Below are positions 4,165-22,877 of a stretch of DNA of 63,971 nucleotides, piece by piece (positions within the stretch are counted from its first letter, which is position 1; the number at the start of each line of letters is the position of its first letter). A program made the translations under genes and the position numbers. The stretch lies in NCBI GenBank assembly GCA_003567625.1, contig PWZB01000136.1, positions 1 to 63,971 on the forward strand, given 5' to 3'. The notes beneath the pieces are model-generated. The model searched no databases. It was given only the letters and a program-made list of their open reading frames with translations, and was not told the DNA's origin. The stretch comes from Bacteroidales bacterium. GTDB taxonomy: Bacteria; Bacteroidota; Bacteroidia; Bacteroidales; UBA7960.

Positions 4165-4259
4165 GGGGTTAATATGGTTAATATGGTTAATATGGTTAAT
4201 ATGGTTGGATGGTTATATGGTTATATGGTTATATGGTTGGATGGTTGGTTATGTGGTTT
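4165..4259. repeat. Degenerate ATGGTT-based tandem repeat (9-nt ATGGTTAAT units, then 8-nt ATGGTTAT / ATGGTTGG units)
   Basis: Direct reading: ggttaat atggttaat atggttaat atggttaat atggttgg atggttat atggttat atggttat atggttgg atggttggtt atgtgg. It lies between the convergent ends of parE and the amidase gene. Confidence 0.9.
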
Positions 4260-8044: not shown

Positions 8045-8449
8045 TCAGATATTTTCTTTTTCTTCTTTTTTTTCGATAAGCAGTAAAAGGTCTTCAATAA
8101 CTTTTTGCAGGTATTCAATACATGATTCACTTTTAACGACATAATTAAACACACCTAGTTCCTGTAATTTTGCAACGAGATTAATATCACGTTGTGCTGA
8201 GCATGCTATAACAGGAATTTCAGGATGTTTCTCATTTATTTTTTGTATTAATTCATATCCGTGAATATCGGGCAACATAAGGTCAACAATAACAATATTA
8301 GGCTTTTCATCAATATGATTTAACAGCTCCTGTCCTAAAACGAAATTAGAAATAGTAATATTTTTTATAGAACCAAGGCACAGCTTGAGTAACATTCCCT
8401 CCGTTTTGTTGTCTTCTATAACAAAAACTTTTCTTTTATTTTTATTCAT
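8045..8449 (-). CDS. Single-domain response regulator (CheY-like receiver)
   Basis: 134 aa. It has VFVIEDN, the phospho-acceptor context IVIVDLMLPD, VIACSAQ and YVVKS. There is no output domain. Confidence 0.85.
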   Translation of the reverse strand: MNKNKRKVFVIEDNKTEGMLLKLCLGSIKNITISNFVLGQELLNHIDEKPNIVIVDLMLPDIHGYELIQKINEKHPEIPVIACSAQRDINLVAKLQELGVFNYVVKSESCIEYLQKVIEDLLLLIEKKEEKENI

Positions 8450-8626: not shown

Positions 8627-9079
8627 TTAATTGACAGTAGATAACATACCAACCGCACATCCTTCTAGTCCGTCTTTAAATGTAAATGTTAAACTATATC
8701 GTCCACTCATAGTGACTGGATATTCAATGAACGGGAAATGACGCTTTGTGTTAATATCATAAGTAGTTGCAATTAGCTGATCTCCCCGATAGAGGCTTAT
8801 GACTACTTCCCCGGGCTTGGTTTGGTCATTACAAGCAAATATCCTGTAGGTGGTTCCACGGTTAAGAATAATTTCGTACCTGGTAACACGGGGTGAAGAC
8901 CCTCTTTGAACTTCCCCGTGTTGGACAGGGAAGCTACGGATGAATCTCGCATTACCTAGTTTAGCATGGCAAACATCCGTTAGTTCATCTCCACATTGTG
9001 ATTTTGCTTCGAATGGAATGCAAAATACTGTTAATGTGGCAATAGCCATTGTGAAAAAAAGTTTTTTTATCATAATCAT
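8627..9079 (-). CDS. Small secreted protein of unknown function (signal peptide, four Cys)
   Basis: The N-terminus MIMIKKLFFTMAIATLTVFCIPFEAKSQ is signal-peptide-like. I recognise no family. Its ATG overlaps the upstream stop as ATGA (9076..9079). Confidence 0.55.
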   Translation of the reverse strand: MIMIKKLFFTMAIATLTVFCIPFEAKSQCGDELTDVCHAKLGNARFIRSFPVQHGEVQRGSSPRVTRYEIILNRGTTYRIFACNDQTKPGEVVISLYRGDQLIATTYDINTKRHFPFIEYPVTMSGRYSLTFTFKDGLEGCAVGMLSTVN

Positions 9080-9987
9080 TCGATTATTTTGTTTCGTATA
9101 TATTCAACTTGCTTGCCAATTCCAGCAACTATTTCTTCATCGATATTTACTTCACTTCTTGAATTATCGACAACGACAATATTACCATCAACTTCTTTCA
9201 TAGCCGGTTCTTTATATATATATGTTATTGATACGTTGTCAAACTCTTTTTTCAAATCCATTAAATCAAGGAATAATTCTTCAAAATTAGGATCATTTCG
9301 GTAATTACTCAACAAAAGTAATATATTATCCAGAACGATCTTTTGTTCGCCGATACGTTGGTGGATGCGTTCTTTATTAGTTGGGTAGGTTTCAACCTTA
9401 GTTGCGATATATAAACTTTCTATCCATGTTCCATAGGCGATAAGCACGGAAATGCTGCTTCGGCTCTGGTCTATCAGGTATCGTGTCATACTGTCAAAGC
9501 CACGATTGGTAATATATAACACTGAATCAACATTACGGCTGCTCTCGGATAACTTGTTCAAGGTTTCATAATCAAAAAATTGCCCTATTCGTAAATCATC
9601 AGCCAGATCTTTTACATTACGTAAATATGAAAGCGTGGTAACAGTTCTGTCGTATATGTTCATATAAACCAGGTCTGTGCCATATACGCCGAGGTTTAAT
9701 GCCCTTTTGAAATTGGTGTTGTAATTGTTTATACCGCTGACAGGATTCAGTAATTCCTGAGAATAGATCACGTCAGATTTTTGCAGTAAAACAGACATTT
9801 CAACCGGATTAGGTACCGACGATATCATCTGTCCGACAACTTCATCGGTCATTTTGATATCTTCAGAAATCAGCGTATCGGCAAGAAGGTCTGTAGCTTC
9901 TTCTCTTTTCTCGGGAACACAAGCTGCAAAAAACAATGCTAAAAACCCGGATATTATTAGCATTGATGAAACAATTCTTTGTGTCAT
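9076..9987 (-). CDS. Lipoprotein of unknown function (predicted mostly helical)
   Basis: MTQRIVSSMLIISGFLALFFAAC is a lipobox-type signal peptide. The track ORF extends to a TTG at 10038, which would overlap the ABC gene's stop by 4 nt. I prefer the ATG at 9987. Confidence 0.55.
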   Translation of the reverse strand: MTQRIVSSMLIISGFLALFFAACVPEKREEATDLLADTLISEDIKMTDEVVGQMISSVPNPVEMSVLLQKSDVIYSQELLNPVSGINNYNTNFKRALNLGVYGTDLVYMNIYDRTVTTLSYLRNVKDLADDLRIGQFFDYETLNKLSESSRNVDSVLYITNRGFDSMTRYLIDQSRSSISVLIAYGTWIESLYIATKVETYPTNKERIHQRIGEQKIVLDNILLLLSNYRNDPNFEELFLDLMDLKKEFDNVSITYIYKEPAMKEVDGNIVVVDNSRSEVNIDEEIVAGIGKQVEYIRNKIIE

Positions 9988-10034
9988 GGCAAGTATTTTT
10001 ATGATATTAATACTAAAACTTATTACAAATATAA

Positions 10035-13000
10035 TCAAATTCCCGTTTGTTCTATCAAAAAATCACGTATTTTATTTCTAAATTTATTAATTTTTTGTTT
10101 TATTATAGGGATTGCGTTTTCTGCAAAGAAAATTGTTTTTGAGAATATATGGTAATATAAGGCAAAATATAGTAACAATGTAAAAATCCAAAGTATAATG
10201 AGATTAAAATAGAATGTATCATATAAATTGCCCAAAAAATGTTTTCTTGGTGCCAGGAAGTGTGACCTGAAATTAAATAATCTTTGATCCTGCGGGTCAA
10301 GATATATTGGATCGGTTTTTTGCACCAGGTGGTTATTAAGCCTTACAAGTGGTAATTCAACCATGACATTTTTGACAAAACTTGTAAGGTATTCATTATG
10401 ATAATCATTCATCAGTTGGCGATACTCCTTATGCTTTTCAGGTGTTCTTATCCTTTTTGCAATTTCCTCATCAATTGCATTGTTTACAGTATTAAAACGA
10501 GCCCGGTAAAAATCATTTAATTTTTCCAAATAGCTGGTCAGGCTATCTGCAAGCGAGGGGTTAAACTTGCCGGGTACAAGCTTATTTATTTGATTGAATT
10601 TATAATCGTGATACTGTGTGAATATGCTTTCATGCTCTTTGGTGATTTCATTTCTAAGCAGTTCAAGGTTATCTGCGCAGATAGGCTCTTCGTATCCTTG
10701 CGAAAGCCTGAATTTGTAATCCTCCACATATCTTTTCAGTTCAGGAATATAGTATACATTTTTATAATACAAAGCGCTTTCCAGTTTTCTTCGCGAATAA
10801 AAATCACGGTTATACTTATTGTTAATGTATTGATTAACAACAAGCCCTTCAAAAGCCCATCTTGAAGGCATTATTTCGGCAATAATGGGCACTTTTTCCT
10901 GCCCGCCTCCAATAGCACGGTTTATTTTATCAAAGCTAAACATTGCCCCGGTTAATACCATTTGCGGAATGATTAAAAAGGGAATCAGAATATATATTGT
11001 TATGGCTGAGTTGAAGGCTGAAGAAATATTAAGCCCCAGAACATTTGCAAATGCAGCTAGAGAGAAGAAAACTAACCAATACTCGAAATACATCCCTTTG
11101 ATTCCTAAAATATAATTTCCTACAATAATAAATAAAAATGCCTGGATGGCTGATAATATAAAAAGGATACCTGTTTTGGCGCATAAATAGCTGCTGCGGC
11201 TCAAATTTAAAAACGATTCACGTTTTAGGATTTTCCTGTCTTTGAAAATTTCTTCGGCACTGACGATAAGCCCAAGGAAAAGGGCAACAATGGTGCACAT
11301 GAAGATATAAGGCATGACGTTATCATTATTACGGAAAATATAGACATCAGATGTTGGGTCTTCTACATACCGGATCACGAAAGCAAGCAGAAATCCTAAT
11401 AAAGGAGCTTCAAGCAAGTTAAGTAAAAGGTATTGTTTGTTTGAAATCTTGGAAAAAAAGTCGCGTGAAAAAAATATTTTGTATTGATTCAGCCAATTGG
11501 GTTTTTTGAAAGATTCGGGCAGTTTGTCGAATGCACCTGTTATCTTTTTTACAGGTATTTTATTTTTAAAATGTTCGTACCACTCGGCCGGAGATACTTT
11601 TCGGTTGGCTGTTGGTTGTCCGTACTCATCAACAATTCTTGACTCAATAATGCTGAAAATGGTTTCAGGGTTGACATTACCGCAAGAGGGACATTCACCG
11701 ATATGGCTGTCTATTTGATTGTCAATCTCTTTAAAATATATTGCTGCTTCAACGGGGTTTCCGTAATAAATTTGAAATCCTCCATCATCAAGGATTGTTA
11801 CATTGTCAAACATTTTATAAATTTCGGAGGATGGTTGATGAATAACGACAAATATAAGCTTTCCCCTGACGGTTAATTCCCGCAGAAGTTCCATGACATT
11901 TTCGGAATCGCGTGAGGATAATCCTGATGTTGGTTCATCAACAAACAAAACTGCGGGTTCACGAATCAACTCAAGGCCGATATTCAATCGTTTACGTTGC
12001 CCGCCGCTAATCTCTTTATTAAGGGGGTCTCCTACTTTCAGATTTTTTATGTGCGAAAGGCCCAGGTTGAACAATACTTTGTTTACTTTGTTTTCAATCT
12101 CTTCTTCCGAAAGGCTTTTATATACTAACTTTGTGCTATAATAAAGGTTTTCATAAACGGTAAGTTCTTCAATTAAAAGATCATCTTGAGGAATATATCC
12201 GATGATACCTTTTACAAGGTCACTTTCTTCGTGCAAATCATTAGCGTTTATATATATATATCCCCTGGTCGGTTTTGCCATGCCTGACATCACATTGAGT
12301 AATGTTGTTTTGCCTGACCCGCTGGCTCCCATTATGCCTAACATTTTTCCGGATTGTTCTTCAATGCTGACTTCCCTCAGGCCAATATGACCACTAGGGA
12401 ATCTGTAATGTACTTTATCAATTTTGAAATGTACATTTATTGAGGTATCATCGGATAAAAATTTTGATGCAACATCAGTGTAAAAAATGGGTTTGCCTTT
12501 AGGTTGTTTTATTACACTACCCCTGGCAATCAAGTAAATTTTACGATTATTTATTGGTAAACCGTTCAGTAAAAGTTCCCTGGTCGAAGTATAACGAAGG
12601 AAATAAAGGTCAACACTCTGTATTCGTAAAACAATTATATTTCCTTCAAGTTGAGGGAAAAAAATATGCTTTGCTTTTTTTGTGGGGTTTTTTTTTGAAT
12701 TTATCAGTAAGATTTCCGGAATATCCCAATTTTCGATATTTTCTTCTACTACAAATGTTTCGATAGCTTTATATTCTTCTTTACTTATGTTAAAGACTTC
12801 GGCAGCAGTATCAATAATCGCCATTCTTTGGGGGGTGAATTTTTTGTCTGAATTAACAAGTTCGAATAACCTGACAAGAACAACGATTTTTTGTTTTTGT
12901 GTAAGGGTTTTATTGATTTTTTTGGCTATTCCAAGTGTTTTGACAGAATCTTTAACTGAAGTAAGTTTTGGTTTTTTTTCTTGCTCATTTTCAGAGGCTT

Positions 13001-13175
13001 TTTTATCTCCTACATAGTCATCAAACAGGGCAAGATATTCCTTAACAGAGCTTTCGTTAAGTTGCTGACGAAGAAAATTCTCAACATATACACGTTCGTT
13101 GGTTGACAGGCCAACGTCTTGCTTTGCAATAATTGCAAAGAGCTGCATCAATGCTTTTAGAATTTCTTCACTCAT
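10035..13175 (-). CDS. Fusion protein: N-terminal TerB-like module + unassigned beta-rich region + ABC ATPase + ABC-2-type permease (ABCG-like half transporter)
   Basis: Walker A is GIMGASGSGKTT, the signature is ISGGQRKRLNIGLEL and Walker B is VLFVDEPTSGLSS. Several C-terminal TM helices follow (LLNLLEAPLLGFLLAFVI, IFMCTIVALFLGLIV and others). The N-terminus EILKALMQLFAIIAKQDVGLSTNERVYVENFL resembles TerB/DjlA-N modules; that is pattern recognition only. Confidence 0.8.
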   Translation of the reverse strand: MSEEILKALMQLFAIIAKQDVGLSTNERVYVENFLRQQLNESSVKEYLALFDDYVGDKKASENEQEKKPKLTSVKDSVKTLGIAKKINKTLTQKQKIVVLVRLFELVNSDKKFTPQRMAIIDTAAEVFNISKEEYKAIETFVVEENIENWDIPEILLINSKKNPTKKAKHIFFPQLEGNIIVLRIQSVDLYFLRYTSTRELLLNGLPINNRKIYLIARGSVIKQPKGKPIFYTDVASKFLSDDTSINVHFKIDKVHYRFPSGHIGLREVSIEEQSGKMLGIMGASGSGKTTLLNVMSGMAKPTRGYIYINANDLHEESDLVKGIIGYIPQDDLLIEELTVYENLYYSTKLVYKSLSEEEIENKVNKVLFNLGLSHIKNLKVGDPLNKEISGGQRKRLNIGLELIREPAVLFVDEPTSGLSSRDSENVMELLRELTVRGKLIFVVIHQPSSEIYKMFDNVTILDDGGFQIYYGNPVEAAIYFKEIDNQIDSHIGECPSCGNVNPETIFSIIESRIVDEYGQPTANRKVSPAEWYEHFKNKIPVKKITGAFDKLPESFKKPNWLNQYKIFFSRDFFSKISNKQYLLLNLLEAPLLGFLLAFVIRYVEDPTSDVYIFRNNDNVMPYIFMCTIVALFLGLIVSAEEIFKDRKILKRESFLNLSRSSYLCAKTGILFILSAIQAFLFIIVGNYILGIKGMYFEYWLVFFSLAAFANVLGLNISSAFNSAITIYILIPFLIIPQMVLTGAMFSFDKINRAIGGGQEKVPIIAEIMPSRWAFEGLVVNQYINNKYNRDFYSRRKLESALYYKNVYYIPELKRYVEDYKFRLSQGYEEPICADNLELLRNEITKEHESIFTQYHDYKFNQINKLVPGKFNPSLADSLTSYLEKLNDFYRARFNTVNNAIDEEIAKRIRTPEKHKEYRQLMNDYHNEYLTSFVKNVMVELPLVRLNNHLVQKTDPIYLDPQDQRLFNFRSHFLAPRKHFLGNLYDTFYFNLIILWIFTLLLYFALYYHIFSKTIFFAENAIPIIKQKINKFRNKIRDFLIEQTGI

Positions 13176-13236
13176 TCAGAAGATTTTTATGTAATACAAT
13201 GAAATGCGCTATGATGTAAAAAGGTTTGGCAAAATA

Positions 13237-13611
13237 TTAATAACTATGCATTTCAAATGGAATATCAACAATTTCAGAATATTCTTCACCTGCTTCAAGC
13301 ATATCTTCATCGTCTTCCTGGTAGTACCATTGTACTACCACATCATTACCTTCATTAAGGATGTCTTCAAATTTAAGAAGAATATCCAGAAGGGCTTTAG
13401 AAGACGCTGTATTAAAGTATTCCAGCCTGAATATTACGTTAGTTTTCGGATTAGGATTTTTCCCATATTCTTCAATCCATTGTATAGCCGGAGTGTAAAA
13501 AGTAACCACATCCTCAGGCAACGACCTTCCGGAAAACTCGATTATGTTGTTTTCAGCATCAAGTATTACATTAGGAGTATCATCAGTCCCTTTAATTTTT
13601 ATTACATCCAT
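13237..13611 (-). CDS. SiaC-like regulatory phosphoprotein (DUF1987)
   Basis: 124 aa. IKGTDDTPNVILDAENNIIEFSGRSLPED...IQWIEEY...FRLEYFNTASSKALLDILLKFE...VQWYYQEDDEDMLEAGEEY...PFEM aligns by eye along the whole length of P. aeruginosa SiaC. A Thr is present in the NT(S/A)S motif at residue 68. Confidence 0.8.
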   Translation of the reverse strand: MDVIKIKGTDDTPNVILDAENNIIEFSGRSLPEDVVTFYTPAIQWIEEYGKNPNPKTNVIFRLEYFNTASSKALLDILLKFEDILNEGNDVVVQWYYQEDDEDMLEAGEEYSEIVDIPFEMHSY

Positions 13612-13627
13612 ATTTATAAATTTTAAA

Positions 13628-14209
13628 TTAATCGATACTTCTTGAAATTTTAGTTCTTAAAATAAAAAACCGGTTATTCTCGTCCATTTCTGCAAAATGG
13701 TATTCCAGTTTTTCGCCGGTTTTCCTTGCAATATCAATCAGCCCTAGTCCTGCTCCCCCTTTATCGGATACTGATCCTTCCCTCATTTGTTTCTTAAACA
13801 ATTCTTTCAGGCCTTCTTTATCAAGCTGGTTAATTTTTTCCAATAGAGCTTTAAGTTCAGGCACCCTGTTTTTATCTACAGCATTGCCGGTAATAACCTG
13901 GTATTCATTTTCTTCTTTACCTATTTTACCCACAATAAAAATACCATTACCGTATTGTCCTTTATTACCCTTGTATTCATATTCTTCGGCATGTTTGCTA
14001 AGGTTTTGCAAACATTCAACCATAACATGAAAAACTTTTCTTTTTATCGAGGTATTTTCGCTGTAGCTGTTCATTTTATTTTCAGCCAACGATGTAAAAG
14101 CTTTTGTTATTTGATGCGTTATCTCTCCATCGTAGACTAAAGTGAATTTTTTAGCCATCATATCTTCATGTAAAGAGCAGATTAGCTTCAAGTAGTTTGA
14201 ATTTTCCAT
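13628..14209 (-). CDS. SiaB-like protein kinase (GHKL/anti-sigma-kinase-like)
   Basis: 193 aa. The C-terminal G-box is DKGGAGLGLIDIARKTGEKLEY. Its size and its position immediately upstream of the DUF1987 gene (16-nt gap) match siaB-siaC. Confidence 0.7.
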   Translation of the reverse strand: MENSNYLKLICSLHEDMMAKKFTLVYDGEITHQITKAFTSLAENKMNSYSENTSIKRKVFHVMVECLQNLSKHAEEYEYKGNKGQYGNGIFIVGKIGKEENEYQVITGNAVDKNRVPELKALLEKINQLDKEGLKELFKKQMREGSVSDKGGAGLGLIDIARKTGEKLEYHFAEMDENNRFFILRTKISRSID

Positions 14210-14281
14210 TTTTGTGTTTTTTCAATTATTAAAAATCGAATTTTATTTACGTGCAATTTTACAAAATAAATGTTTATAAAC

Positions 14282-16873
14282 CTAAAATCTAATACCTATC
14301 ATAAGCACATCGTCAATTTGTTTATTATCTCCCAGCCATTTTATATAGTCATTTTTAAAATAAGCTAATACTTGATTCATTGGGATGTCTTTGTTTTTGA
14401 TAATAGCCTCTTTTATTCTTTTCGGGAAATATTTTTTCCCTTCAGGGCCTCCAAATTGGTCTGACAAACCATCGGAGAATATATATATTGCATCACCTTT
14501 TTTAATATCAACAACAAAATTTTCAAACTTGGGTTCCGGTTTTCCTGGCCTGGGTATTCCGCCGATTGCTGTTCTTGTTCCTCTAAATTCTTTCAGGTTT
14601 CCATCACGAACAAGGTATAACGGTCTGTGTGCACCTGCAAACTGCAGTTGCATTTTCTTAGTATTGATTTTGCATAAAGCTATATCCATCCCATCTCTTG
14701 CACTTGCGTCATCAAGGTCTTGTTTAAGAGTTTTTTGAACACCCCGGTGCAATTGACAGAGTATATCGCCAGGATTATGATCTTTTGGCTGACTGACGAT
14801 TTGGTTTATCAAAAAATATCCGATCAAAGAAAGCATAGCACCTGGAACGCCATGTCCGGTACAGTCAATAGCAGAGATAAAAACAGAATCATCTTTTTCG
14901 TATAGCCATGGAAAATCACCGCTAACAATATCTCTTGGTATATAAAACAAAAAGGAATCTGGAAATATGTTTCTTATTTGTTTTTGGTTTGGCAATAATG
15001 CATTTTGAAGCCTGAAGGCATAGTTTATACTATCGGTAATTTTTGCGTTTTTTTCTTTTATTTCCTGTTCAATTTTTTTCAGCTCGGTTATATCATGAAG
15101 GATAAAGAGTATTGTTTCCAGGCGGTCTTCCTCGTTAAATTCGGGAATAGCATTAGCATTGATGATGTGTTGTTCTTCATTGACCGGGAAAGAAATTTCA
15201 GTTTGAACCTTTTGCTTTTTATTTATTACTTTTTCAACTGTTTGATCAATAAATGTTGTTAACTCTTCGCGCAGGTCAACTTCGTTAAGATGTTTTTTGT
15301 GAAACTCTTCTGATTTCAGTTCCGAGTAGCATTCTATAGCCGGGTTGGCATAGAAAAATTGCCTGTTAAGGTCAACCCTGATAATGATATCGGGGCTGTT
15401 GTCGGAGAGCGTTTGCATTTGTCCGCGCATTCGCTGTTCTTTTTCAGCTCTTTTGCGTTCGGTAATGTCGGTAGTATTCAGAAGAAGGCCATTAATAGCG
15501 GGGTCATGCAACAGGTTACGACCGGTCGTTTCCAAAAACATTATCGAACCATGCTTGTTAAGATATGTATATTGAATCTCCTGGGGCTGGTCCGGATTTT
15601 TCAGGAGGTTTTCAAACATCTGGTTTATAGTATTCTGACCTCTTTTGTTAGTACGGTCAAAATCTTTGCCCGCAAACATATCCTCTTCAGTATAACCCAG
15701 TATATTTTTTACTGAAGGGCTGACATATTTTAATTTCTTGTTTTTATCGTATATGGTTATCAGCTCAGATGCATTTTCCAATAAAGAATAAAGCCTTTTC
15801 TGGCTCCGGTTAACTTCTTCTACCTTTTCTTCAAGATTAATGTTTGTTTTTTCGAGCTCTTCTTGTGTAAGACGCATCTCTTCGGCGTTTTGCCGGAGTT
15901 CCTCTTCATTTTCCTTAAGTTCCTGGGTCATTTCCTGCGATTCTTTCAAAAGGCGCTCGGTTTTTTCGGTTATTTTAAGATTATATATGGTTTGGGCTAC
16001 GATTTCAGCAATGCTTTTCACAAATTTTATCTCGTGTTCTTTAAAGCGTTTAAATGATGCGAATTCAAACGCCCCCTGCAGTTTTTCTTCCATAAAAATC
16101 GGTACGATAAGAATACTGTCGGGTTTTTTTTCACCAAGTATTCCGGATGTAATTGAAAGATAATAATCGGGAATTTCCGTACGGTGAACTATATCTCTTT
16201 CAATTGCTGCCTGTCCAACAAGCCCTTCTCCCACTTTTACTTCGCCTTTTAAGTATTTTCGGCGGTTGTATGCATATGAAGCGCTAACATAAAGTTTTTC
16301 AATTTCATCATCATAAATGTGAAAAACACCCTGAACCACATCAATATAATGAATCAAAGCTTCAAGTACTTCCTGAGATAGAATATTTACATCATTGTGT
16401 TTCCTGAGTATCTGGTTGATCTTATCTTTGCCAACCATTTCCCAGTTTTGCAGTGATTCTTTTTGATTGTTTTCGTGCAGTGTATCACGAAGGTTTTGTA
16501 GTGTCTTCCCAAGGGTATCGGATTCATCAGTTATTTCAAAGTCAATATCAAACTGGCCATTACCAATTTTCTCGGCAAATTCAGCAACACGGTTGATATT
16601 CTCGGTTTGGCTAATTAGTTGACCCTGAAGGGTATCGTATTGTTTTTGTAATTCTTCTTTTTTCTCAATTATCAAGTATCCCGTTATGGCAAAAACAATT
16701 GGTATTGTATCAAGTATTATCAATACGGGGTTTTGACGATGTATTTCTAAAATCCCCGATAAAGTAAATTCAATACCGGATTTACTTAATTCTATAATCC
16801 AGGCAAGAAATGGAAAAAGAAATCCTAAACCAAAAAGTAATAAAATAAATTGTTTTTTATTCAAAGACTTCAT
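14282..16873 (-). CDS. Membrane-bound multi-sensor PP2C (SpoIIE-type) phosphatase, SiaA-like: 2 TM + HAMP-like + GAF + coiled coil + 2 PAS + PP2C
   Basis: TM helices lie at residues 8-28 and 49-69. The GAF region includes GEGLVGQAAIERDIV...ILIVPIF. An acidic coiled coil covers residues 305-362. PAS-type segments follow. The C-terminal SpoIIE/PP2C domain shows DIVSGDFPWLY, AIDCTGHGVPGAMLS, IYIFSDGLSDQFGG and DDVLMIGIRF. Confidence 0.85.
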   Translation of the reverse strand: MKSLNKKQFILLLFGLGFLFPFLAWIIELSKSGIEFTLSGILEIHRQNPVLIILDTIPIVFAITGYLIIEKKEELQKQYDTLQGQLISQTENINRVAEFAEKIGNGQFDIDFEITDESDTLGKTLQNLRDTLHENNQKESLQNWEMVGKDKINQILRKHNDVNILSQEVLEALIHYIDVVQGVFHIYDDEIEKLYVSASYAYNRRKYLKGEVKVGEGLVGQAAIERDIVHRTEIPDYYLSITSGILGEKKPDSILIVPIFMEEKLQGAFEFASFKRFKEHEIKFVKSIAEIVAQTIYNLKITEKTERLLKESQEMTQELKENEEELRQNAEEMRLTQEELEKTNINLEEKVEEVNRSQKRLYSLLENASELITIYDKNKKLKYVSPSVKNILGYTEEDMFAGKDFDRTNKRGQNTINQMFENLLKNPDQPQEIQYTYLNKHGSIMFLETTGRNLLHDPAINGLLLNTTDITERKRAEKEQRMRGQMQTLSDNSPDIIIRVDLNRQFFYANPAIECYSELKSEEFHKKHLNEVDLREELTTFIDQTVEKVINKKQKVQTEISFPVNEEQHIINANAIPEFNEEDRLETILFILHDITELKKIEQEIKEKNAKITDSINYAFRLQNALLPNQKQIRNIFPDSFLFYIPRDIVSGDFPWLYEKDDSVFISAIDCTGHGVPGAMLSLIGYFLINQIVSQPKDHNPGDILCQLHRGVQKTLKQDLDDASARDGMDIALCKINTKKMQLQFAGAHRPLYLVRDGNLKEFRGTRTAIGGIPRPGKPEPKFENFVVDIKKGDAIYIFSDGLSDQFGGPEGKKYFPKRIKEAIIKNKDIPMNQVLAYFKNDYIKWLGDNKQIDDVLMIGIRF

Positions 16874-16999
16874 TTTTTAAACCGTCTTATATTCCAGAGC
16901 TTTTTTTACAAATGATTTAATAAAACTTGATTTGATATTCAAAAATAGTGGAATTCAGTTCAATTTTCATTTTTTTTATTAAAAAAATTTAAACTTAAA

Positions 17000-17893
17000 T
17001 TATTGTTTTGCAGTAATATTAATGTTCTCAAAATATTTGCCTATTTCTGCTCCAATGTTTTTAAAAAGATTAATATCATATTTTTCATAGGGCTTAAATG
17101 AAGCTATTTCTATTATACCAAGGATATTTTGTTTCTTTTTATTAGTTATCGGAAAAATAGCCATATTGTTTGGAGTTCCGCTTCCAAGCCCTGAAGAAAC
17201 TGTGATATAGCCTTCCGGGATATTGTCAAGATTAATAGGATCTCCTTGTTTGGCGACCTGTCCGACCAACCCTTCTCCAATCTCAAACTCAAAGATCTTT
17301 TCTTCAGGAATATAATAGGCATACGTTGCCATTAAAACCAATTTATCTTTTTTATTATCTGATTGCTTTAAATACAATTCACCTTGTGCAAGTTCATAAA
17401 ACTTGCCAATACATGACAAAACTGTCTTTGATATTTTTTTTGGGTCTTTGATTTTTGGGATGTTTTCTTTAAAACATTCAATCATTTTTTTTTCTCTTTC
17501 CTCATATTGCTTTTCCAATTGTCTTATACGTTCTTTTTCCTTTTGTGCTTTTTCTTCTTCCGACTCATCTTCCTTTTTTATTGAAGTATATTGATCAGGT
17601 GATTGCCGGTCCGGGATTTTCTTTTTCAATTGCGCCATTAAATTACTCAATTCAATAACAGCAAGAATAAAAAAAGTGGTAAATGGAATAACCAAAAGCA
17701 GGATCATGAAAAGGAATAAATAATAAAATTCTATCTCAACATTAGCGAATTCGGGTGTTTGCGAAAGAGTATCATATATAGCATTGCTGTATCTGAACAA
17801 AAAGAGGGAAAAAATTATCATTACAACCGCCAGAACAAGATATATAATGAATTTTCCGTACCTGAATAATTCCTTAAATTGATTATTTTTCAT
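17000..17893 (-). CDS. Membrane-anchored GAF-domain protein
   Basis: It has two N-terminal TM helices, a Glu/Lys-rich coil (EDESEEEKAQKEKERIRQLEKQYEEREKKM) and a C-terminal GAF-like region (GEGLVGQVAKQGDPINL...MAIFPI...GIIEIASF). Confidence 0.7.
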   Translation of the reverse strand: MKNNQFKELFRYGKFIIYLVLAVVMIIFSLFLFRYSNAIYDTLSQTPEFANVEIEFYYLFLFMILLLVIPFTTFFILAVIELSNLMAQLKKKIPDRQSPDQYTSIKKEDESEEEKAQKEKERIRQLEKQYEEREKKMIECFKENIPKIKDPKKISKTVLSCIGKFYELAQGELYLKQSDNKKDKLVLMATYAYYIPEEKIFEFEIGEGLVGQVAKQGDPINLDNIPEGYITVSSGLGSGTPNNMAIFPITNKKKQNILGIIEIASFKPYEKYDINLFKNIGAEIGKYFENINITAKQ

Positions 17894-18026
17894 TTATAAA
17901 TCTATTGTATTATATATAAAAAATTATGCTGTATTATAATTTTTTAAGCGTTAAAAGTAAACAATTTTGAACTATATTATTAGATATTTTATCAATTTTA
18001 TATTAAATTTTTATTATAATAAAAAA

Positions 18027-18596
18027 CTATTTTTGTAATAATAAATAAAAAAATTTAATTATTTCATCACTTTTAAGAACATAGTCAACATTTTTGGTTT
18101 TATCAATAGCAGCCACCGGCATAGTTGGCATTTGTGCATCTGAGGGATTTTGTACAACCGTGATGCCTCCATAATCCTTTATTTTTTTCAATCCTGAAGC
18201 TCCATCTTTATTTGCGCCTGACAAAACAACACCAACACATTTGTTTTTATAAGCATATCCACCTGTCATAAATGTCAGATCAATACTTGGCCTGGAGTGG
18301 TTAACAGATTGTTCTGTTGATAAAGCAAACGTGCCTGTAAGCTCAATATATAAATGATAATTAGCCGGTGCCAGATATATGTAACCGGATTTGATTTTAT
18401 CTTTGTCAAATGGTTCAACAATAGGCATGTTTGATTTGAAAGACAATGTTTCAACAAAACCATGCCTTACATGTTTTAAACGGTGCAATGCCAAAACTAC
18501 CGGTATGGGATAATCTTTTGGAAGACCTGATATAAGCTTTGTTATGACCTGAAAACTTCCCGCTGACCCCCCAATAATTATCAATTTAATATTCAT
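18027..18596 (-). CDS. cheB: CheB-type protein-glutamate methylesterase, catalytic domain only (no receiver domain)
   Basis: 189 aa. Motifs: IIIGGSAGSFQVI (Ser), VVLALHRLKH (His), VVLSGANKDGASGLKKIKDYGG (Asp region), VVQNPSDAQMPTMP. The ORF begins directly with the catalytic domain. Confidence 0.8.
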   Translation of the reverse strand: MNIKLIIIGGSAGSFQVITKLISGLPKDYPIPVVLALHRLKHVRHGFVETLSFKSNMPIVEPFDKDKIKSGYIYLAPANYHLYIELTGTFALSTEQSVNHSRPSIDLTFMTGGYAYKNKCVGVVLSGANKDGASGLKKIKDYGGITVVQNPSDAQMPTMPVAAIDKTKNVDYVLKSDEIIKFFYLLLQK

Positions 18597-18629
18597 TTAA
18601 ATAATGTATTGCCTGTTATCAATTTATTA

Positions 18630-19475
18630 TCAGCCGGTTTTTTTATAAATTTTTTCGTTTTTGTTTATTTCAGTAAATTTATAATAATCTTTACACCATG
18701 ATATATTTTCCATGTTGCCTACAACTAAATAACCATTATAAGCAAGGTTGTTTGCAAACAGCCCTAAAAGCATTTCCTGATATTGCTGAGTGTAATATAT
18801 AAAAATATTCCTGAAAATTATAACATTAAATCCCCTGATTCTTTGGGCATCCTGGTATTTATAAAGGGAAAATTCAATGTTTTCATATATGTCGTTTTTG
18901 ATCCTGAAACCGTTTTTGACAGGTAAGATATGCCTGGAAAGACTGGCTTTCCCTTCATTGAATCTTTGATAATTAGTTTCGCTTATCTCAATATTTTTGC
19001 TTGAATAAACCCTTTTTTCCAGGTTTTGAATAATAAATTGTGAAATGTCTGTTGCCAGGATTTCGGTCTTATGTTTTAAACCGGCTTCGTTTATTATAAT
19101 TGCGGAGGTTATTAACTCTTCTCCTGATGAGCATCCGGGAATCCATATTTTTATTCGTGTATCTTTCTTATCAAGCGAGGGTAACATTTCATCGCGAAAA
19201 TATCGCCAAAATGCAGGGTCACGAAAAAATTCCGTACACTCTACGTTTATATCACTTAAAAACTTTTCAAAAAAAGTTTTATCAGTAATTAACTTGTCGG
19301 TTAAAGTATCAAAACCTTTTAATTCGTTTATTTGCATAGCCCTTATAATGCTTCTTTTGAAGAAAGTTAATGCAAAACAACCCAAGTCAAAACCATGTGC
19401 TGTTTTAATGGCTTCAATAAGATTCCGGATACCTGAAATACTGATCTCTATCTCCTTGCCTAATTCATTATTCAT
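18630..19475 (-). CDS. cheR: CheR-type protein-glutamate O-methyltransferase
   Basis: 281 aa. The N-terminal helical domain contains TEFFRDPAFW. The SAM-binding block is IWIPGCSSGEELITSAI. FNVIIFRNIFIYY is also present. Confidence 0.8.
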   Translation of the reverse strand: MNNELGKEIEISISGIRNLIEAIKTAHGFDLGCFALTFFKRSIIRAMQINELKGFDTLTDKLITDKTFFEKFLSDINVECTEFFRDPAFWRYFRDEMLPSLDKKDTRIKIWIPGCSSGEELITSAIIINEAGLKHKTEILATDISQFIIQNLEKRVYSSKNIEISETNYQRFNEGKASLSRHILPVKNGFRIKNDIYENIEFSLYKYQDAQRIRGFNVIIFRNIFIYYTQQYQEMLLGLFANNLAYNGYLVVGNMENISWCKDYYKFTEINKNEKIYKKTG

Positions 19476-19574
19476 TTGATATGTCTAAGCGAATTCGCAA
19501 CAAATATACTAAAATTATTATTCCATGAATTCAATTATATCCAATAATAATTAAATAGCCTTAACAATGTCATT

Positions 19575-19738
19575 GAATTACGAAAGTTATCGAATTACGA
19601 ATTTATTACGAATATACGAATTACGAATATTAATTCCGATTACCTGCCGACTGCCGATTGCCGATTGCCGACTGCCGACTGCCGACTGCCGATTGCCGAC
19701 TGCCGTCATACCGATTTACCACCCGCCATCCGTTACCC
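19575..19738. repeat. Composite short-tandem-repeat element: TTACGAA-type AT-rich units, a CCGATTACC joint, then 9 x TGCCGAY heptamers (19645..19707) and a C-rich tail
   Basis: Read directly: tgccgac tgccgat tgccgat tgccgac tgccgac tgccgac tgccgat tgccgac tgccgtc. A 7-nt period is incompatible with coding. Confidence 0.9.
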
Positions 19739-19974
19739 TCAATTATAGTTCGTGAATTAATTTGATTACTATTTTTATATCAATTGATCTGAACTTGCTT
19801 ATTGGTCACTACACACTGGCCTTTAGCAATCCTGTATAACATTGCCGGGAGGGTTATCATGGTTATGGTAATTTCTTAAAGTGATTAACTTTGCATTTCG
19901 TACTTATTTTAATAAAAAGGATTTACAGCAAACTGATAATTTTTATTTGCGGATAAAGGATTTTTGTTAATAAG

Positions 19975-20859
19975 ATGATGTTAGCTGAAAACATAAAATC
20001 ATATTTTCACCTGCACTTTGTGGTTATCCTGCTGGGTTTTACGGCAATTCTGGGCAATCTGATAAGCCTTGAAGCCATGCACTTGGTATGGTATAGAATG
20101 ATGTTTGCTTTCATAGGATTATGGATATTTATTTTAATAAAAAGAAAACCTTATCTGCTTAAAGCCGGGGATATTTTTAAGTTACTTGGAATAGGTGTGA
20201 TAATAGCAATGCACTGGATATTATTTTTTCATGCGATAAAAGTATCGAATGTATCGGTAACACTTGGAGTATTGGCTTCCACTACGCTTTTTACAAGTTT
20301 TATGGAGCCCTTGTTCAACCGGAGGCGAATTTTCTGGCTTGAGGTTTTAATTGGTATTGCTGTAATAGGAGGTCTTTATATTATTTTTCAATTTGAAACC
20401 CATTATTATAAGGGTATATTTTTTGCATTGTTAGCTGCTGTTTTAAGCGGTTTTTTTATCGTAATTAATAAAAAAATAAGCCTGCGTTATGATCCGACAG
20501 TTATAAGTTTTTATGAAATGATTGGAGGTTTTGGCATTATTACGGTTTTTTACATGATAACCGGTGGTTTTGATGTGACGTTTTTTAAAATATCCACATC
20601 TGATTTAATTTACATTTTAATATTAAGTTTTTTATGCACATCATATGCTTTTGCCGCTATTGTAGAGATAATGAAAATATTGTCGGCATTCAATGTTGTT
20701 CTGGCAATTAACATGGAGCCGGTATATGGGATAATCATGGCATTAATAATATTCGGCGAATCTGAGCAAATGTCGCCCGGTTTTTATATTGGAGCAATGA
20801 TAATTATAGCAGCCGTTTTCACCTATCCGGTTTTGAAGCGAAAGTTTTCCATTTTATAA
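19975..20859 (+). CDS. DMT-superfamily (EamA-like) transporter
   Basis: 294 aa with about 10 hydrophobic helices arranged as two similar halves, typical of EamA repeats. Confidence 0.7.
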   Translation: MMLAENIKSYFHLHFVVILLGFTAILGNLISLEAMHLVWYRMMFAFIGLWIFILIKRKPYLLKAGDIFKLLGIGVIIAMHWILFFHAIKVSNVSVTLGVLASTTLFTSFMEPLFNRRRIFWLEVLIGIAVIGGLYIIFQFETHYYKGIFFALLAAVLSGFFIVINKKISLRYDPTVISFYEMIGGFGIITVFYMITGGFDVTFFKISTSDLIYILILSFLCTSYAFAAIVEIMKILSAFNVVLAINMEPVYGIIMALIIFGESEQMSPGFYIGAMIIIAAVFTYPVLKRKFSIL

Positions 20860-21691
20860 TATCCAATAACTTGTCGGATGCCACGGCAATAAATTCTCTG
20901 TTTTTTAATTGAGGTTTATTATATTTAAGGGGTTTTCCGTCAATGACAGACAGAACTTTGCCTCCGGCTGCATTTACAAGGGCATGGCCTGAAGCCGTAT
21001 CCCATTCATACGAATAATTCCCCCGCATATAAATATTAGCCGAGCCTTCGGCTAATAAACAGAATTTCAGGGCACTTCCTTTTTTGATAATTTTTACAGG
21101 AATGTTTTCATTCGCCAGTGATTGAATTATTGAAGCGGTTCTATCGTCCGGATGGGAGCGGCTTACAGCCAAATTAACACGGCTGAAGATATTGTCTGAA
21201 GTAAGTTTATCCGAGTGTTTCAGAATGTTCTCAATATTATTATTTTTAAGGTGTCTTTTAAAATTTTTACAGATGGTTATTTTAAATGCACCTTTACTTA
21301 ACCATCCTAAATATATGATCTCCCGTACGGGTACTGCAGTTACCCCGATCACCGGTACGGAATTTTGAATAAGCCCGATATTGACAGTAAATTCCCCGTT
21401 CTTTTTTATAAATTCTTTTGTTCCGTCAAGCGGATCAACAAGCCACAAAAATTCATGGTTTTTTCTTTTATAATAAGCCATCGATTGGGTTTCTTCGCTG
21501 ATAACAAGAATATTTGTTCTGTTCAGTATTGAAGTGATCGCATTATTTGAGTTTTTGTCTGCAATGGTAATAGGGGTTCCGTCATTTTTGACCTCGAAAT
21601 CAAATTTTTGGTCATATACGGTCAAAATTTCATCTTTAGCTTTCAGTGCTGCTTTTAATGCAAGCATTACCAATGAAGGATAATTTGTCAT
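20819..21691 (-). CDS. cysQ: Inositol-monophosphatase-family enzyme, CysQ-like 3'(2'),5'-bisphosphate nucleotidase
   Basis: Motifs: VISEET, WLVDPLDGTKEF, YEWDTASGHALV. Confidence 0.7.
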   Translation of the reverse strand: MTNYPSLVMLALKAALKAKDEILTVYDQKFDFEVKNDGTPITIADKNSNNAITSILNRTNILVISEETQSMAYYKRKNHEFLWLVDPLDGTKEFIKKNGEFTVNIGLIQNSVPVIGVTAVPVREIIYLGWLSKGAFKITICKNFKRHLKNNNIENILKHSDKLTSDNIFSRVNLAVSRSHPDDRTASIIQSLANENIPVKIIKKGSALKFCLLAEGSANIYMRGNYSYEWDTASGHALVNAAGGKVLSVIDGKPLKYNKPQLKNREFIAVASDKLLDIIKWKTFASKPDR

Positions 21692-21823
21692 ATTAAATTG
21701 AACGGTTAAATCAGTTTGTTAACTTGTCTATTACATCTGCCAGGTGATTTGCTCCGTTAGAGAAATTTACTGTTTTGCAAAAAAACAACTAACCTCAACG
21801 GCTCAAAGAGAAATACCTTTTTC

Positions 21824-21916
21824 GAACCACATAGACATATATGACACATAGTTTTTACATAGAAATATAAATACGGAAACTCTATGTGTTATCCTATGTG
21901 TTCTATATGTGTGTTC
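21824..21916. repeat. Imperfect palindrome built from CACATAG / CTATGTG words (REP-like)
   Basis: gaaccacatagacatatatgacacatag ... ctatgtgttatcctatgtgttctatatgtgtgttc. It lies between the CDF gene's end and the cysQ start. A half copy is at 49598..49630. Confidence 0.75.
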
Positions 21917-21971
21917 AAGCAGCAGAATTTTTTATATAAAATTCATTTTCTTCGCATGACGGCTATGCCAT

Positions 21972-22862: not shown

Positions 22863-22877
22863 GTATTATAATAAAAA

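Follow-up and report, generated by a model that had tools for sequence, protein, structure and literature searches.

A SiaABC-like phospho-switch encoded between CheR/CheB homologues and an ABCG-type exporter in Bacteroidota

Results

A conserved gene cluster encodes relatives of SiaA, SiaB and SiaC

Judging from their sequences, three neighboring genes in the window analyzed here, i.e. the 63,971 nucleotides of contig PWZB01000136.1 from a Bacteroidales bacterium (assembly GCA_003567625.1), encode a phospho-switch that is genuinely related to SiaA/SiaB/SiaC of Pseudomonas. We propose, at what we take to be even chances, that they form a SiaABC-type partner switch with the ABCG-type exporter encoded downstream as its output and with CheR/CheB adapting the receptor-phosphatase. 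In P. aeruginosa SiaABCD, a partner switch composed of a PP2C phosphatase, a kinase and a DUF1987 protein controls the diguanylate cyclase SiaD. Here, the genes for CheR, CheB, a 2TM-GAF protein, SiaA, SiaB, SiaC, a 1046-aa exporter, a lipoprotein and a small secreted protein follow each other co-directionally in this order from 19475 to 8627 (Table 1), with short gaps of 16, 61 and 72 nt and a 4-nt overlap. This co-directional cluster of 9–10 genes is strongly conserved in ~80 Bacteroidota genomes, including Bacteroidales, Cytophagales (the complete genome of Fulvivirga maritima), a Flavobacteriales MAG, and others.

Table 1 Features of the cluster and its flanks, with positions in the window
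Feature	Positions	Strand	Characteristics
Single-domain response-regulator receiver, 134 aa	8045..8449	-	PF00072, 66 bits
Small secreted Cys-containing protein, 150 aa	8627..9079	-	Signal peptide; hydrophobic N-terminus
Lipoprotein, 303 aa from ATG at 9987	9076..9987	-	Cys23 invariant; fold unlike PDB entries
Half-transporter, 1046 aa, proposed switch output	10035..13175	-	TerB-like, FHA-like, ABC ATPase, ABC-2/ABCG membrane domain
SiaC-family (DUF1987) regulatory phosphoprotein, 124 aa	13237..13611	-	PF09345 and SiaC structures
Thr68 codon, predicted phospho-acceptor	13408..13410	-	Aligns with SiaC T68
SiaB-family protein kinase, 193 aa	13628..14209	-	NF038262, PF19788, PDB 6kko_A
SiaA-like receptor phosphatase, 863 aa	14282..16873	-	2TM, HAMP-like segment, GAF, EE[LM] heptad coiled coil, PAS, PAS, PP2C
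2TM-coiled coil-GAF protein, 297 aa	17000..17893	-	Paralogue of SiaA N-terminal sensor module, without output domain
CheB-type methylesterase, 189 aa	18027..18596	-	Catalytic domain only, no receiver; PF01339, 157.6 bits, whole model
CheR-type protein-glutamate methyltransferase, 281 aa, first cluster gene	18630..19475	-	PF01739 CheR, 113 bits
Intergenic region upstream of cheR, likely promoter region	19476..19974	.	Repeats

The 124-aa protein matches the Pfam model PF09345 (SiaC) at model positions 1–120 of 120 (141.3 bits; cut-off 24.5) as well as the SiaC crystal chains 6kko_C and 6k4f_U (E=3.3e-14), and its residues 4–122 align without gaps to P. aeruginosa SiaC with 30% identity. The numbering was checked with the 12 SiaC residues that PMC8457831 lists as contacts to SiaD; each of them was found at the expected letter, and residue i of the 124-aa protein therefore corresponds to SiaC residue i; with this shared numbering and the gapless alignment, Thr68 in YFNTASS is equivalent to the SiaC phospho-acceptor T68. 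Compared to 6kko_C, the N-T-S motif at the start of helix alpha2 retains N67 and T68, with Ala in place of S69. The YFNTAS motif is present in 80/80 orthologues, Thr68 is invariant in the ortholog alignment, and the SiaC-family gene is the most conserved of the cluster (median ortholog identity 65% vs 30–60% for its neighbors). The residues that contact SiaD in SiaC have fared differently: four of the 12 are kept and eight are changed, including the swaps D29 to R and R103 to D, and these replacement residues are themselves invariant within Bacteroidota. Such changed but conserved positions would fit a different, conserved partner.

The 193-aa protein scores above the cut-off with the NCBIfam model NF038262 (SiaB_fam_kinase; 171.2 bits, cut-off 85), has a Pfam match to PF19788 (DUF6272; 143 bits), and matches the SiaB structure 6kko_A (E=1.4e-15) with the E..N and GAGLGL motifs of the ATP site aligned. 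siaB is found in 73/73 loci at a median distance of 15 nt from siaC, and here the gap is 16 nt. The 863-aa SiaA-like protein, whose gene is present in 65/66 loci, has two TM helices at its N-terminus followed by the Pfam domains GAF (160–296), PAS (372–472), PAS (485–599) and SpoIIE/PP2C (661–863); its C-terminus matches the crystal structure of the SiaA PP2C domain (6k4e; E=4.8e-34) with the GDF, DC.GHG, DG..DQ and DD motifs aligned. Scores with the NCBIfam equivalogs were lower than the cut-offs for SiaC proper (NF038265; 88.3 bits, cut-off 150), SiaB proper (NF038264; 89.4 bits, cut-off 225) and SiaA (NF038263; 160.3 bits, cut-off 700). The match to the last of these is confined to the final 268 residues, and the first 600 residues are 2TM-GAF-PAS-PAS instead of following the periplasmic domain-HAMP-PP2C architecture of the full-length SiaA equivalog. 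No equivalog cut-off is reached by any of the three; these proteins are family members and not orthologues in function.

An earlier note on this DNA had assigned three minus-strand open reading frames to the SiaC, SiaB and SiaA-PP2C families, and its coordinates proved exact and its family assignments were confirmed; the searches that it called for with the DUF1987 and SiaB family models gave the significant matches described above (PF09345 and NF038262). Its reading of the 124-aa protein as SiaC along the whole length, with the phospho-acceptor Thr68 kept, agrees with the full-length Pfam match and the alignments. The SiaB-like kinase that it placed 16 nt upstream and the GAF and two PAS domains that it saw as additions to SiaA were likewise recovered.

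An ABC exporter occupies the siaD position

Among the open reading frames >150 aa of the window there is no GG[DE]EF motif, nor is there one in 81 related loci totaling 1.33 Mb of flanking sequence (as distinct from whole genomes), and few or no GGDEF genes have been reported in Bacteroidetes (PMC7288161). The earlier statements that SiaD is not linked and that Bacteroidota have little c-di-GMP signaling thus stand. The unit delimited in the earlier note, 13237–16873, is genuine as a trio but was drawn too narrowly, being the middle of an operon spanning approximately 8627–19475; the note also left the output open, and it missed the exporter in the siaD position and the upstream CheR/CheB genes.

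In 76/79 loci, the exporter gene comes directly after siaC, at a median distance of 41 nt. Its product consists of TerB-like helices (1–150), an FHA-like beta-sandwich (~155–240), ABC_tran (266–417) and, in the C-terminal half, ABC2_membrane (564–783), with TM1–5 at 583–742, a loop of ~240 aa and the last TM helix at ~990–1010. Pfam thus recognizes TerB, ABC_tran and ABC2_membrane in one polypeptide with the ATPase N-terminal to the ABC-2 membrane domain, an architecture that places the protein in the ABCG/ABC-2 class, export itself being predicted; the match to TIGR00955 (246 bits) is below the cut-off of 736. An AF2 model of residues 1–264 (pLDDT 87) has the eleven-stranded beta-sandwich fold of FHA domains. 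In Foldseek searches with this model, FHA domains were the top PDB matches (probability 0.97–1.0, but E-values only 0.02–0.3), the TerB-like PG1108 was matched as well, and the sequence profile of the domain matches the MEK1 FHA domain (E=0.012). Of the FHA consensus, the domain keeps no more than the structural LNG turn and a single Ser; the canonical phosphate-binding residues (GR, SxxH, NGT) are not conserved, among them the Arg, the His and the NGT Asn. Because these phosphothreonine-binding residues are not conserved and Pfam FHA (PF00498) gave no match even at E<=1, we refer to the domain as FHA-like, and it is unlikely that it reads phosphorylated Thr68. The N-terminal helix of the exporter (residues 1–22) is 92% identical across 69 orthologues compared to 68% for the ATPase domain.

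Two loci have deviating arrangements of the exporter module. L016 has neither the GAF-PAS phosphatase nor CheR/CheB but encodes a 7TMR-DISM PP2C protein downstream, and SiaB, SiaC (in two copies), exporter, lipoprotein and secreted protein are still contiguous; in L083, the exporter module lies without SiaBC beside a LytTR two-component system. These arrangements suggest that the exporter module is the effector and that its inputs are exchangeable. Two further loci have SiaB-SiaC without the exporter, and one of them, L074, has a giant secreted protein and a PorP/SprF-like gene instead.

Receptors, CheR/CheB and flanking genes

The 297-aa protein, which has TM helices at 15–33 and 62–80 and a Pfam GAF_2 domain at 151–285, is encoded in 55/60 loci, and for some of its orthologues the best match is the N-terminal part of SiaA. 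EE[LM] heptads in a coiled coil, which resemble the NEEL heptads of CheB-CheR fusion proteins, occur in 53/65 SiaA orthologues and 24/40 output-less paralogues compared to 8/560 other open reading frames. CheR contains the SAM-site motif GCSSGEE, and its gene lies upstream in 55 of the 58 related loci that extend far enough; cheB is found in 53/58 loci. Heptad motif and CheB presence are associated (p=0.0008, uncorrected), an association that is weak and rests on near-miss sequences; in an exploratory analysis, the highest partial correlation of evolutionary distances for CheB was with the SiaA sensor region (0.56). CheR and CheB are the only chemotaxis-type proteins in the clusters of the window and of Fulvivirga, in which no match to MCPsignal, CheW or Hpt/CheA was detected.

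The lipoprotein gene is present in 65/67 loci. Its product has no Pfam, NCBIfam or PDB sequence match, and its homologues are all annotated as hypothetical; the AF2 model (pLDDT 85), a helical bundle with a four-stranded sheet and a C-terminal helix, has no fold match in the PDB. We consider it probably an accessory of the exporter. The gene for the small secreted protein shares 4 nt with the lipoprotein gene and is found in 63/66 loci, and the protein has no Pfam, NCBIfam or PDB match. The receiver gene is linked in the closest relatives only (12 loci), often followed by a gene for a CheB-CheR-PAS fusion protein. Upstream of cheR lie a 7-nt tandem repeat (19644–19705) and TTCGTAAT repeats, which are absent from related loci, and a promoter scan returned no more sites than expected by chance.

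Discussion

By homology, the SiaA-like PP2C membrane receptor-phosphatase would dephosphorylate the DUF1987 protein at Thr68 and a dedicated GHKL-like, SiaB-like kinase would rephosphorylate it; the genomic context suggests that the output would be the ABCG-type exporter encoded immediately downstream and not a diguanylate cyclase. In analogy with SiaC-SiaD, unphosphorylated SiaC would bind the N-terminal module of the exporter, which is conserved and cytoplasmic, i.e. the TerB-like helices and the FHA-like sandwich, and in this way may change its ATPase and transport activity, and the lipoprotein and small secreted protein may work with the exporter in the envelope. We infer the direct SiaC-exporter contact from synteny, modularity and surface conservation, and DUF1987 proteins have been suggested to modulate adjacent proteins (PMC8457831). 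On the input side, we speculate that CheR and CheB add methyl groups to, and remove them from, glutamates of the EE[LM] heptad coiled coil in SiaA and in its output-less paralogues, so that the phosphatase input would adapt in the manner of a chemoreceptor.

STAS-like partner-switch proteins of RsbV/SpoIIAA-type systems often act on unlinked targets, and the switch could therefore be real but its target, e.g. a diguanylate cyclase or other enzyme, a transcription factor or an anti-sigma factor, encoded elsewhere, with the exporter merely co-transcribed or indirectly regulated. This possibility, which we consider unlikely yet the most serious of the alternatives, would accommodate the two loci with SiaB-SiaC but no exporter, the occurrence of the exporter module without SiaBC, and the weak exploratory distance correlations of SiaC with the exporter NBD (0.24) and N-terminal module (0.14), an analysis that also missed the known SiaB-SiaC pair (0.07). 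It has to contend with the adjacency of siaC and the exporter gene across several bacterial orders and even after a change of phosphatase type, the lack of GG[DE]EF motifs in the 1.33 Mb of flanking sequence, and the rarity of GGDEF genes in Bacteroidetes (PMC7288161).

Two other arrangements appear less probable still, both to a similar degree. Some ABC transporters sense flux and report to kinases, and TerB-family domains are regarded as sensors of ligands or metals; the exporter might thus be an input, with its TerB-like domain or its transport reporting ligand or flux to SiaABC and the switch acting on something else. The exploratory partial correlation of distances between its N-terminal module and the SiaA sensor region (r 0.40) is in line with this idea, but SiaA, the usual input point of such switches, already has five sensor-type domains, the exporter gene takes the position of that of the output SiaD in Pseudomonas, and the switch would be left without an output. 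Alternatively, SiaC could bind CheR/CheB or the coiled-coil stalks of SiaA, of the 2TM-GAF protein or of the HAMP-GAF-PAS paralogues without output, and so serve as a feedback element within the sensory module. In Pseudomonas, the stalk to which SiaC binds consists of parallel helices (PMC8457831), coiled coils are conserved in the receptors of the cluster, and the highest partial correlation of SiaC is with the PP2C domain (0.33), though this is its known enzyme-substrate partner. The SiaB-SiaC-exporter core nevertheless survives in L016, which lacks these receptors as well as CheR/CheB, and feedback alone would provide no physiological output.

The proposed switch with the exporter as output shares with P. 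aeruginosa SiaABCD (PA0172-PA0169) the three protein families and the order phosphatase-kinase-phosphoprotein-output, the PP2C and kinase motifs, and T68 and N67 in the gapless alignment. It differs by the exporter in place of a linked SiaD/GGDEF protein, by GAF and two PAS domains instead of the periplasmic domain-HAMP input of Pseudomonas SiaA, by the addition of CheR, CheB and output-less receptor paralogues, by scores under the equivalog cut-offs for all three proteins, and by the eight changed SiaD-contact residues. The logic is that of the RsbU/RsbV/RsbW- and HptB-HsbR-HsbA-type systems, in which a small alpha/beta phosphoprotein is the substrate of both a sensor-linked PP2C and a small kinase and binds its target when unphosphorylated; in contrast to these types, the phosphoprotein is DUF1987 and not STAS, although SiaC is structurally STAS-like (PMC7647112, PMC8457831), the kinase is DUF6272/SiaB and not RsbW-like, with nothing to suggest that it sequesters a sigma factor in addition, and the proposed target is a transporter. 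A precedent for an FHA-bearing ABC exporter under Ser/Thr phosphorylation and a small binding protein is the ABCG-type Rv1747 of Mycobacterium tuberculosis, with the Ser/Thr kinase PknF as its regulator and Rv2623 as the binding protein (PMC3138270, PMC5549992). Both are half-transporters in which the ATPase precedes an ABC-2-type membrane domain and follows cytoplasmic regulatory domains of the FHA fold, and both genes adjoin that of a Ser/Thr phospho-signaling partner. Here, however, there is a single divergent FHA-like domain, without a Pfam FHA match or conserved phosphate-binding residues and preceded by the TerB-like domain, and a SiaB-type GHKL-like kinase would act on a separate small protein, where Rv1747 has a Hanks kinase that targets the linker of the transporter itself. 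Finally, the cluster resembles chemotaxis-type adaptation and the CheB-CheR-PAS fusions of Bacteroidota in having CheR/CheB catalytic domains with intact motifs beside membrane receptors with HAMP-like segments and Glu-rich heptad coiled coils, yet its proteins lack an MCP signaling domain, CheA and CheW, the CheB of the window lacks a receiver domain, the receptor output is a PP2C phosphatase, and receptor methylation is hypothetical.

In the literature searched, no paper describes a SiaABC variant with an ABC exporter, and Bacteroidota are not known to have a flagellar chemotaxis pathway. Tentatively, and with clearly less confidence than in the switch itself, we suggest that the cluster represents an undescribed Bacteroidota sensory pathway in which CheR/CheB-adapted non-MCP receptors (HAMP-GAF-coiled coil-PAS), a receptor-borne PP2C and a DUF1987 switch would directly gate an ABCG-type exporter and its envelope accessories. 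If so, a sensory pathway would control the export of a surface or matrix component, which may be tied to gliding or biofilm behavior.

A SiaABC-like switch without SiaD

The three open reading frames of the earlier note lie on the minus strand and encode proteins of 863, 193 and 124 aa, with gaps of 72 nt between siaA and siaB and 16 nt between siaB and siaC, and the similarity of the 124-aa protein to P. aeruginosa SiaC was confirmed. Specifically, this SiaC-like protein scored 141.3 bits over the entire PF09345 model (the SiaC family, formerly DUF1987; gathering score 24.5) and aligned without gaps over residues 4-122 to crystallised SiaC (6kko, 6k4f; E=3.3e-14, 30% identity). To check the numbering, we used the SiaC residues that contact the c-di-GMP cyclase SiaD (Q10, D29, Y31, Y65, N67, T68, S69, I71, M75, R103, L107, E110; PMC8457831). 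Because 12/12 of these sit on the expected letters of the aligned SiaC, residue i of the window protein corresponds to residue i of SiaC, and Thr68 is therefore the equivalent of the phospho-acceptor T68, in agreement with the earlier note. The kinase suggested to lie upstream was also recovered: the 193-aa protein scored 171.2 bits against the NCBIfam SiaB-family kinase model (cut-off 85), and the E..N and GAGLGL motifs of the ATP site are in register between it and the SiaB structure. HMM searches with the DUF1987 and SiaB models thus placed both proteins above the cut-offs. Likewise, the SiaA-like protein carries the GAF, two PAS and PP2C domains described previously, and its PP2C domain could be aligned to the crystallised PP2C domain of SiaA (E=4.8e-34), including the Asp motifs that bind metal. 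Because none of the three proteins (0/3) reached the NCBIfam equivalog (same-function) cut-offs for SiaA, SiaB and SiaC proper, we count them on these scores as family members rather than functional orthologues. No GG[DE]EF motif was detected in any sizeable open reading frame of the window or across 81 related loci (1.33 Mb in total), supporting the earlier claim that no SiaD is linked to the switch; the accompanying remark that c-di-GMP signalling is sparse in Bacteroidota agrees with a report of few or no GGDEF genes in Bacteroidetes (PMC7288161).

Features of the window and their occurrence in related loci (counted only in loci with enough flanking sequence)
Feature	Position	Strand	Description	Related loci
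TonB-dependent receptor-like outer-membrane protein	2-1849	-	Cut by the window start	
gyrB/parE-like gene	2284-4125	+	One continuous frame but for a single in-frame stop; HATPase_c in 2284-3024; DNA_gyraseB, Toprim and GyrB_C in 3172-4125	
Single in-frame TAA of the gyrB/parE-like gene	3022-3024	+		
Tandem repeat GGTTATAT x 9.5	4167-4246		Just downstream of the gyrB-like gene	
Receiver gene	8045-8449		Single-domain	
Secreted protein			~150 aa; gene ends the unit at 8627	63/66
Lipoprotein	9076-9987	-	303 aa from the ATG at 9987, start as in homologues	65/67
Exporter (ABC gene)	10035-13175	-	1046 aa; TerB 8-138, ABC ATPase 266-417, ABC-2 membrane domain 564-783 (Pfam)	76/79 directly 3' of siaC (77 if the tandem siaC duplication of locus L016 is allowed)
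SiaC-like	13237-13611	-	124 aa; PF09345	
Thr68 codon	13408-13410	-	Within YFNTASS; counterpart of SiaC T68	
SiaB-like kinase	13628-14209	-	193 aa; NCBIfam SiaB-family kinase model	73/73 before siaC
SiaA-like	14282-16873	-	863 aa; two N-terminal TM helices, GAF, two PAS, C-terminal SpoIIE/PP2C	65/66
2TM-GAF protein	17000-17893	-	297 aa	55/60
CheB	18027-18596		No receiver domain	53/58
CheR	18630-19475		Gene begins the unit at 19475	55/58
Intergenic region	19585-19705		Upstream of cheR	
Tandem repeat CTGCCGA x 8.9	19644-19705		7-nt unit, beside several TTCGTAAT repeats	
Flanking genes	19975-24137		EamA transporter, inositol-monophosphatase-family, cation-diffusion facilitator, 2Fe-2S/FAD/NAD oxidoreductase	
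Tandem repeat GGGTGAC x 5.6	38390-38428			

The switch genes are part of a conserved cluster in Bacteroidota

Relatives of the SiaC-like protein number in the thousands; the closest 120 are 66-97% identical and all single-domain, those with a named source come from Bacteroidota, and none has an annotation more specific than 'DUF1987 domain-containing protein'. The window copy is present on a soda-lake sediment metagenome contig, and a metagenome-assembled Bacteroidales genome from a soda lake (L002) is the closest one. Scanning GTDB at one genome per species, we recovered at least 554 relatives, and in the best 80 loci, which we examined, the common co-directional order is CheR, CheB, 2TM-GAF, SiaA, SiaB, SiaC, the 1046-aa ABC protein, the ~300-aa protein and the ~150-aa protein, optionally preceded by a pair consisting of CheR and an output-less HAMP-GAF-PAS-PAS receptor. 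Median gaps among the related loci are 15 nt between siaB and siaC and 41 nt between siaC and the ABC gene. Fulvivirga maritima, a cultured member of the Cytophagales with a complete genome (CP089980), has the identical order with independent Pfam labels; further carriers are Anaerophaga thermohalophila DSM 12881 and Plebeiibacterium sediminum.

Linkage of the receiver gene is limited to the closest relatives. Downstream of the cluster in close relatives, a receiver gene of this kind is followed by a gene for a 1240-1270-aa CheB-CheR-PAS fusion with five NEEL heptads (15837-19655 in L005; similar fusion genes in L006-L008, L011 and L013), and none lies beside the receiver gene in the window. 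The flanks are ordinary, the EamA and inositol-phosphatase genes being syntenic in the closest relatives only. The TAA in the gyrB/parE-like gene could mean that this is a pseudogene or is recoded, or could stem from an error in sequencing or assembly.

The intergenic region upstream of cheR is the probable promoter region of the cluster. Its CTGCCGA and TTCGTAAT repeats are absent from 81/81 related loci and might be a slipped-strand (phase-variation) tract or an array of binding sites. Scans for promoters and terminators yielded sites no commoner than chance, and no Rfam family was matched at gathering score.

An ABC exporter occupies the position of siaD

The protein encoded directly downstream of the SiaC-like protein most resembles ABCG-type 'pigment precursor permease' transporters and has five transmembrane helices within residues 583-742, a loop of ~240 aa and a final transmembrane helix near residue 1000. 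A confident AlphaFold2 model of residues 1-264 (77 homologues; pLDDT 87.2) contains a helical domain (1-150) and a beta-sandwich (~155-240). In Foldseek searches of the PDB with this model, FHA domains led the matches (Rad53 FHA1, MEK1, CEP170, EssC, DgcB; probability 0.97-1.0, E 0.02-0.3), and the helical part matched the TerB-like protein PG1108. A sequence profile of the sandwich alone matched the MEK1 FHA domain at E=0.012, the aligned part comprising only the structural LNG turn. Because the phosphothreonine-binding residues (Gly-Arg, Ser-x-x-His and the Asn of NGT) are not conserved in the sandwich and the Pfam FHA model does not match the exporter, we term the modelled domain FHA-like in fold, do not assume that it reads phosphothreonine, and dropped as our default the idea that it is a reader of phosphorylated Thr68. 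In 69 orthologues, residues 1-22 are 92% identical to the window protein, compared with 68% for the ATPase and 67% for the membrane domain, and this higher identity marks them as a predicted, functionally constrained cytoplasmic surface. As a candidate anti-phage defence system the locus was rejected, PADLOC yielding generic ABC-ATPase matches only.

The genes for the ~300-aa and ~150-aa proteins overlap by 4 nt. Because Cys23 follows a hydrophobic leader and is invariant in the ~300-aa protein and its homologues, we regard this protein as a lipoprotein. It had no sequence match in Pfam, NCBIfam or the PDB; its confident AlphaFold model (pLDDT 85) shows a helical bundle and a small sheet with no significant Foldseek match among PDB folds (best E=0.68), and this predicted fold may be absent so far from the PDB. 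The 150-aa protein, which starts with a signal peptide and contains conserved cysteines, also lacked matches in Pfam, NCBIfam and the PDB.

CheR, CheB and paralogues of the SiaA sensor region

Both CheR and CheB clearly belong to their families, whereas neither CheA nor CheW nor an MCP signalling domain was found among the cluster proteins. The 2TM-GAF protein and a ~790-aa receptor encoded in many loci are paralogues of the sensor part of SiaA that lack the phosphatase. In the SiaA-like protein, a Glu-rich heptad coiled coil (residues ~310-350), TQELKENEEELRQNAEEMRLTQEELEK, lies between the GAF and the first PAS domain and resembles the NEEL heptads of the CheB-CheR-PAS fusions encoded beside some clusters; the receptor paralogues carry a similar segment. 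A three-heptad [EQ][EQ][LMI] pattern was present in 53/65 SiaA orthologues and 24/40 output-less paralogues, and in 8/560 other long open reading frames. We set aside an apparent association of the pattern with the presence of CheB (Fisher p=0.0008, uncorrected), since the sequences scored as lacking it miss it by a single residue and the loci share ancestry. We hypothesize that CheR and CheB would methylate the receptor coiled coils, leading to adaptation.

Proposed mechanism and target of the SiaC-like protein

By homology, we propose with high confidence that the SiaB-like kinase would phosphorylate T68 of the SiaC-like protein and that the PP2C domain of the SiaA-like protein would strip this phosphate under control of its membrane, HAMP-like, GAF and PAS input. 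By analogy with Pseudomonas, unphosphorylated SiaC would be the binding form. As its target, genomic context suggests the exporter encoded downstream, a reading that we hold to have about an even chance of being correct. This reading is favoured because the exporter stands where siaD would be in almost every locus and in several orders, and because inputs appear exchangeable around a constant effector module. L016 lacks the GAF-PAS phosphatase and CheR/CheB and has a 7TMR-DISM PP2C protein encoded elsewhere in the locus, but its genes for SiaB, two SiaC copies, exporter, lipoprotein and secreted protein are still contiguous; L083 has the exporter and lipoprotein but no SiaBC, and a LytTR two-component system lies beside them. 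The reading is also favoured because the SiaD-contact surface of SiaC is largely altered: 4/12 contact residues are kept, and residues 29 and 103 have the opposite charge, the new residues being invariant within Bacteroidota, as would be expected if SiaC had another partner that is itself conserved. The dedicated, highly conserved cytoplasmic regulatory module of the exporter argues in the same direction, as does the precedent of Rv1747, an FHA-bearing ABCG-type exporter controlled by Ser/Thr phosphorylation and by the binding of a small protein (PMC3138270, PMC5549992). In an exploratory comparison of evolutionary distances, partial correlations were 0.33 for SiaC-PP2C (positive control), 0.24 for SiaC-ATPase and 0.14 for SiaC-N-terminal module; these values are too noisy to count for or against the exporter, as the known pair SiaB-SiaC gave only 0.07.

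We also considered that the SiaC target is unlinked to the cluster. Two loci have SiaB-SiaC without the exporter, as this alternative would allow, and in one of them, L074, the place of the exporter after SiaB-SiaC is taken by genes for a 1474-aa secreted protein and a PorP/SprF-like protein; given the near-constant position of the exporter in the remaining loci, we regard an unlinked target as unlikely, if well worth considering. It appears improbable that the exporter is an input of the switch rather than its output, and we give a similarly small chance to feedback by SiaC inside the sensory module. The exporter as target remains our preferred reading.

Several related loci deviate in their gene content. 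L074 (1163-6268) and L083 (1-3845) encode giant secreted or adhesin-like proteins of 1474 aa and 7373 aa (CHU_C sorting domain), adjoining SiaB-SiaC in L074 and the TerB-ABC exporter in L083, with a PorP/SprF-type gene beside each; this hints at a possible tie to type IX secretion or gliding adhesins. In L016 (9998-10789), siaC is in tandem duplicate with the Thr kept in both copies, L042 (16104-16466) encodes an additional, distant paralogue of the DUF1987 family in which Gly replaces Thr (YLNGSS), and L085 (7395-8552) encodes a 385-aa protein with two SiaB/DUF6272 modules.

Relation to known systems and significance

To our knowledge, SiaABC is known solely as a c-di-GMP/biofilm switch in Pseudomonas. 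SiaABCD is the closest system, with all three families encoded in the same order and the acceptor Thr in common; the window cluster differs in output, in sensor architecture and in the added CheR/CheB genes, and it falls outside SiaABCD on the defining output, SiaD being absent. In the literature searched, DUF1987 is barely mentioned, and we found no SiaABC-like system of Bacteroidota and no link to an ABC transporter or to CheR/CheB; the structural paper on SiaC proposed DUF1987 proteins as general regulators of 'adjacent proteins' (PMC8457831). We conclude that the genes from cheR to the 150-aa gene are a real, widely conserved signalling-export cluster without prior description in the literature searched. 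The cluster defines four uncharacterised families, i.e. the TerB/FHA-like ABC exporter, the lipoprotein, the small secreted protein and the 2TM-GAF protein, and suggests what the CheR/CheB genes might do in Bacteroidota without flagella, where their presence is unexplained. Because cultured species such as F. maritima, A. thermohalophila and P. sediminum carry it, the cluster is experimentally tractable. It provides a concrete and widespread test case for control of a transporter, an entirely different class of output, by a DUF1987 protein in a phylum that is largely without c-di-GMP signalling.
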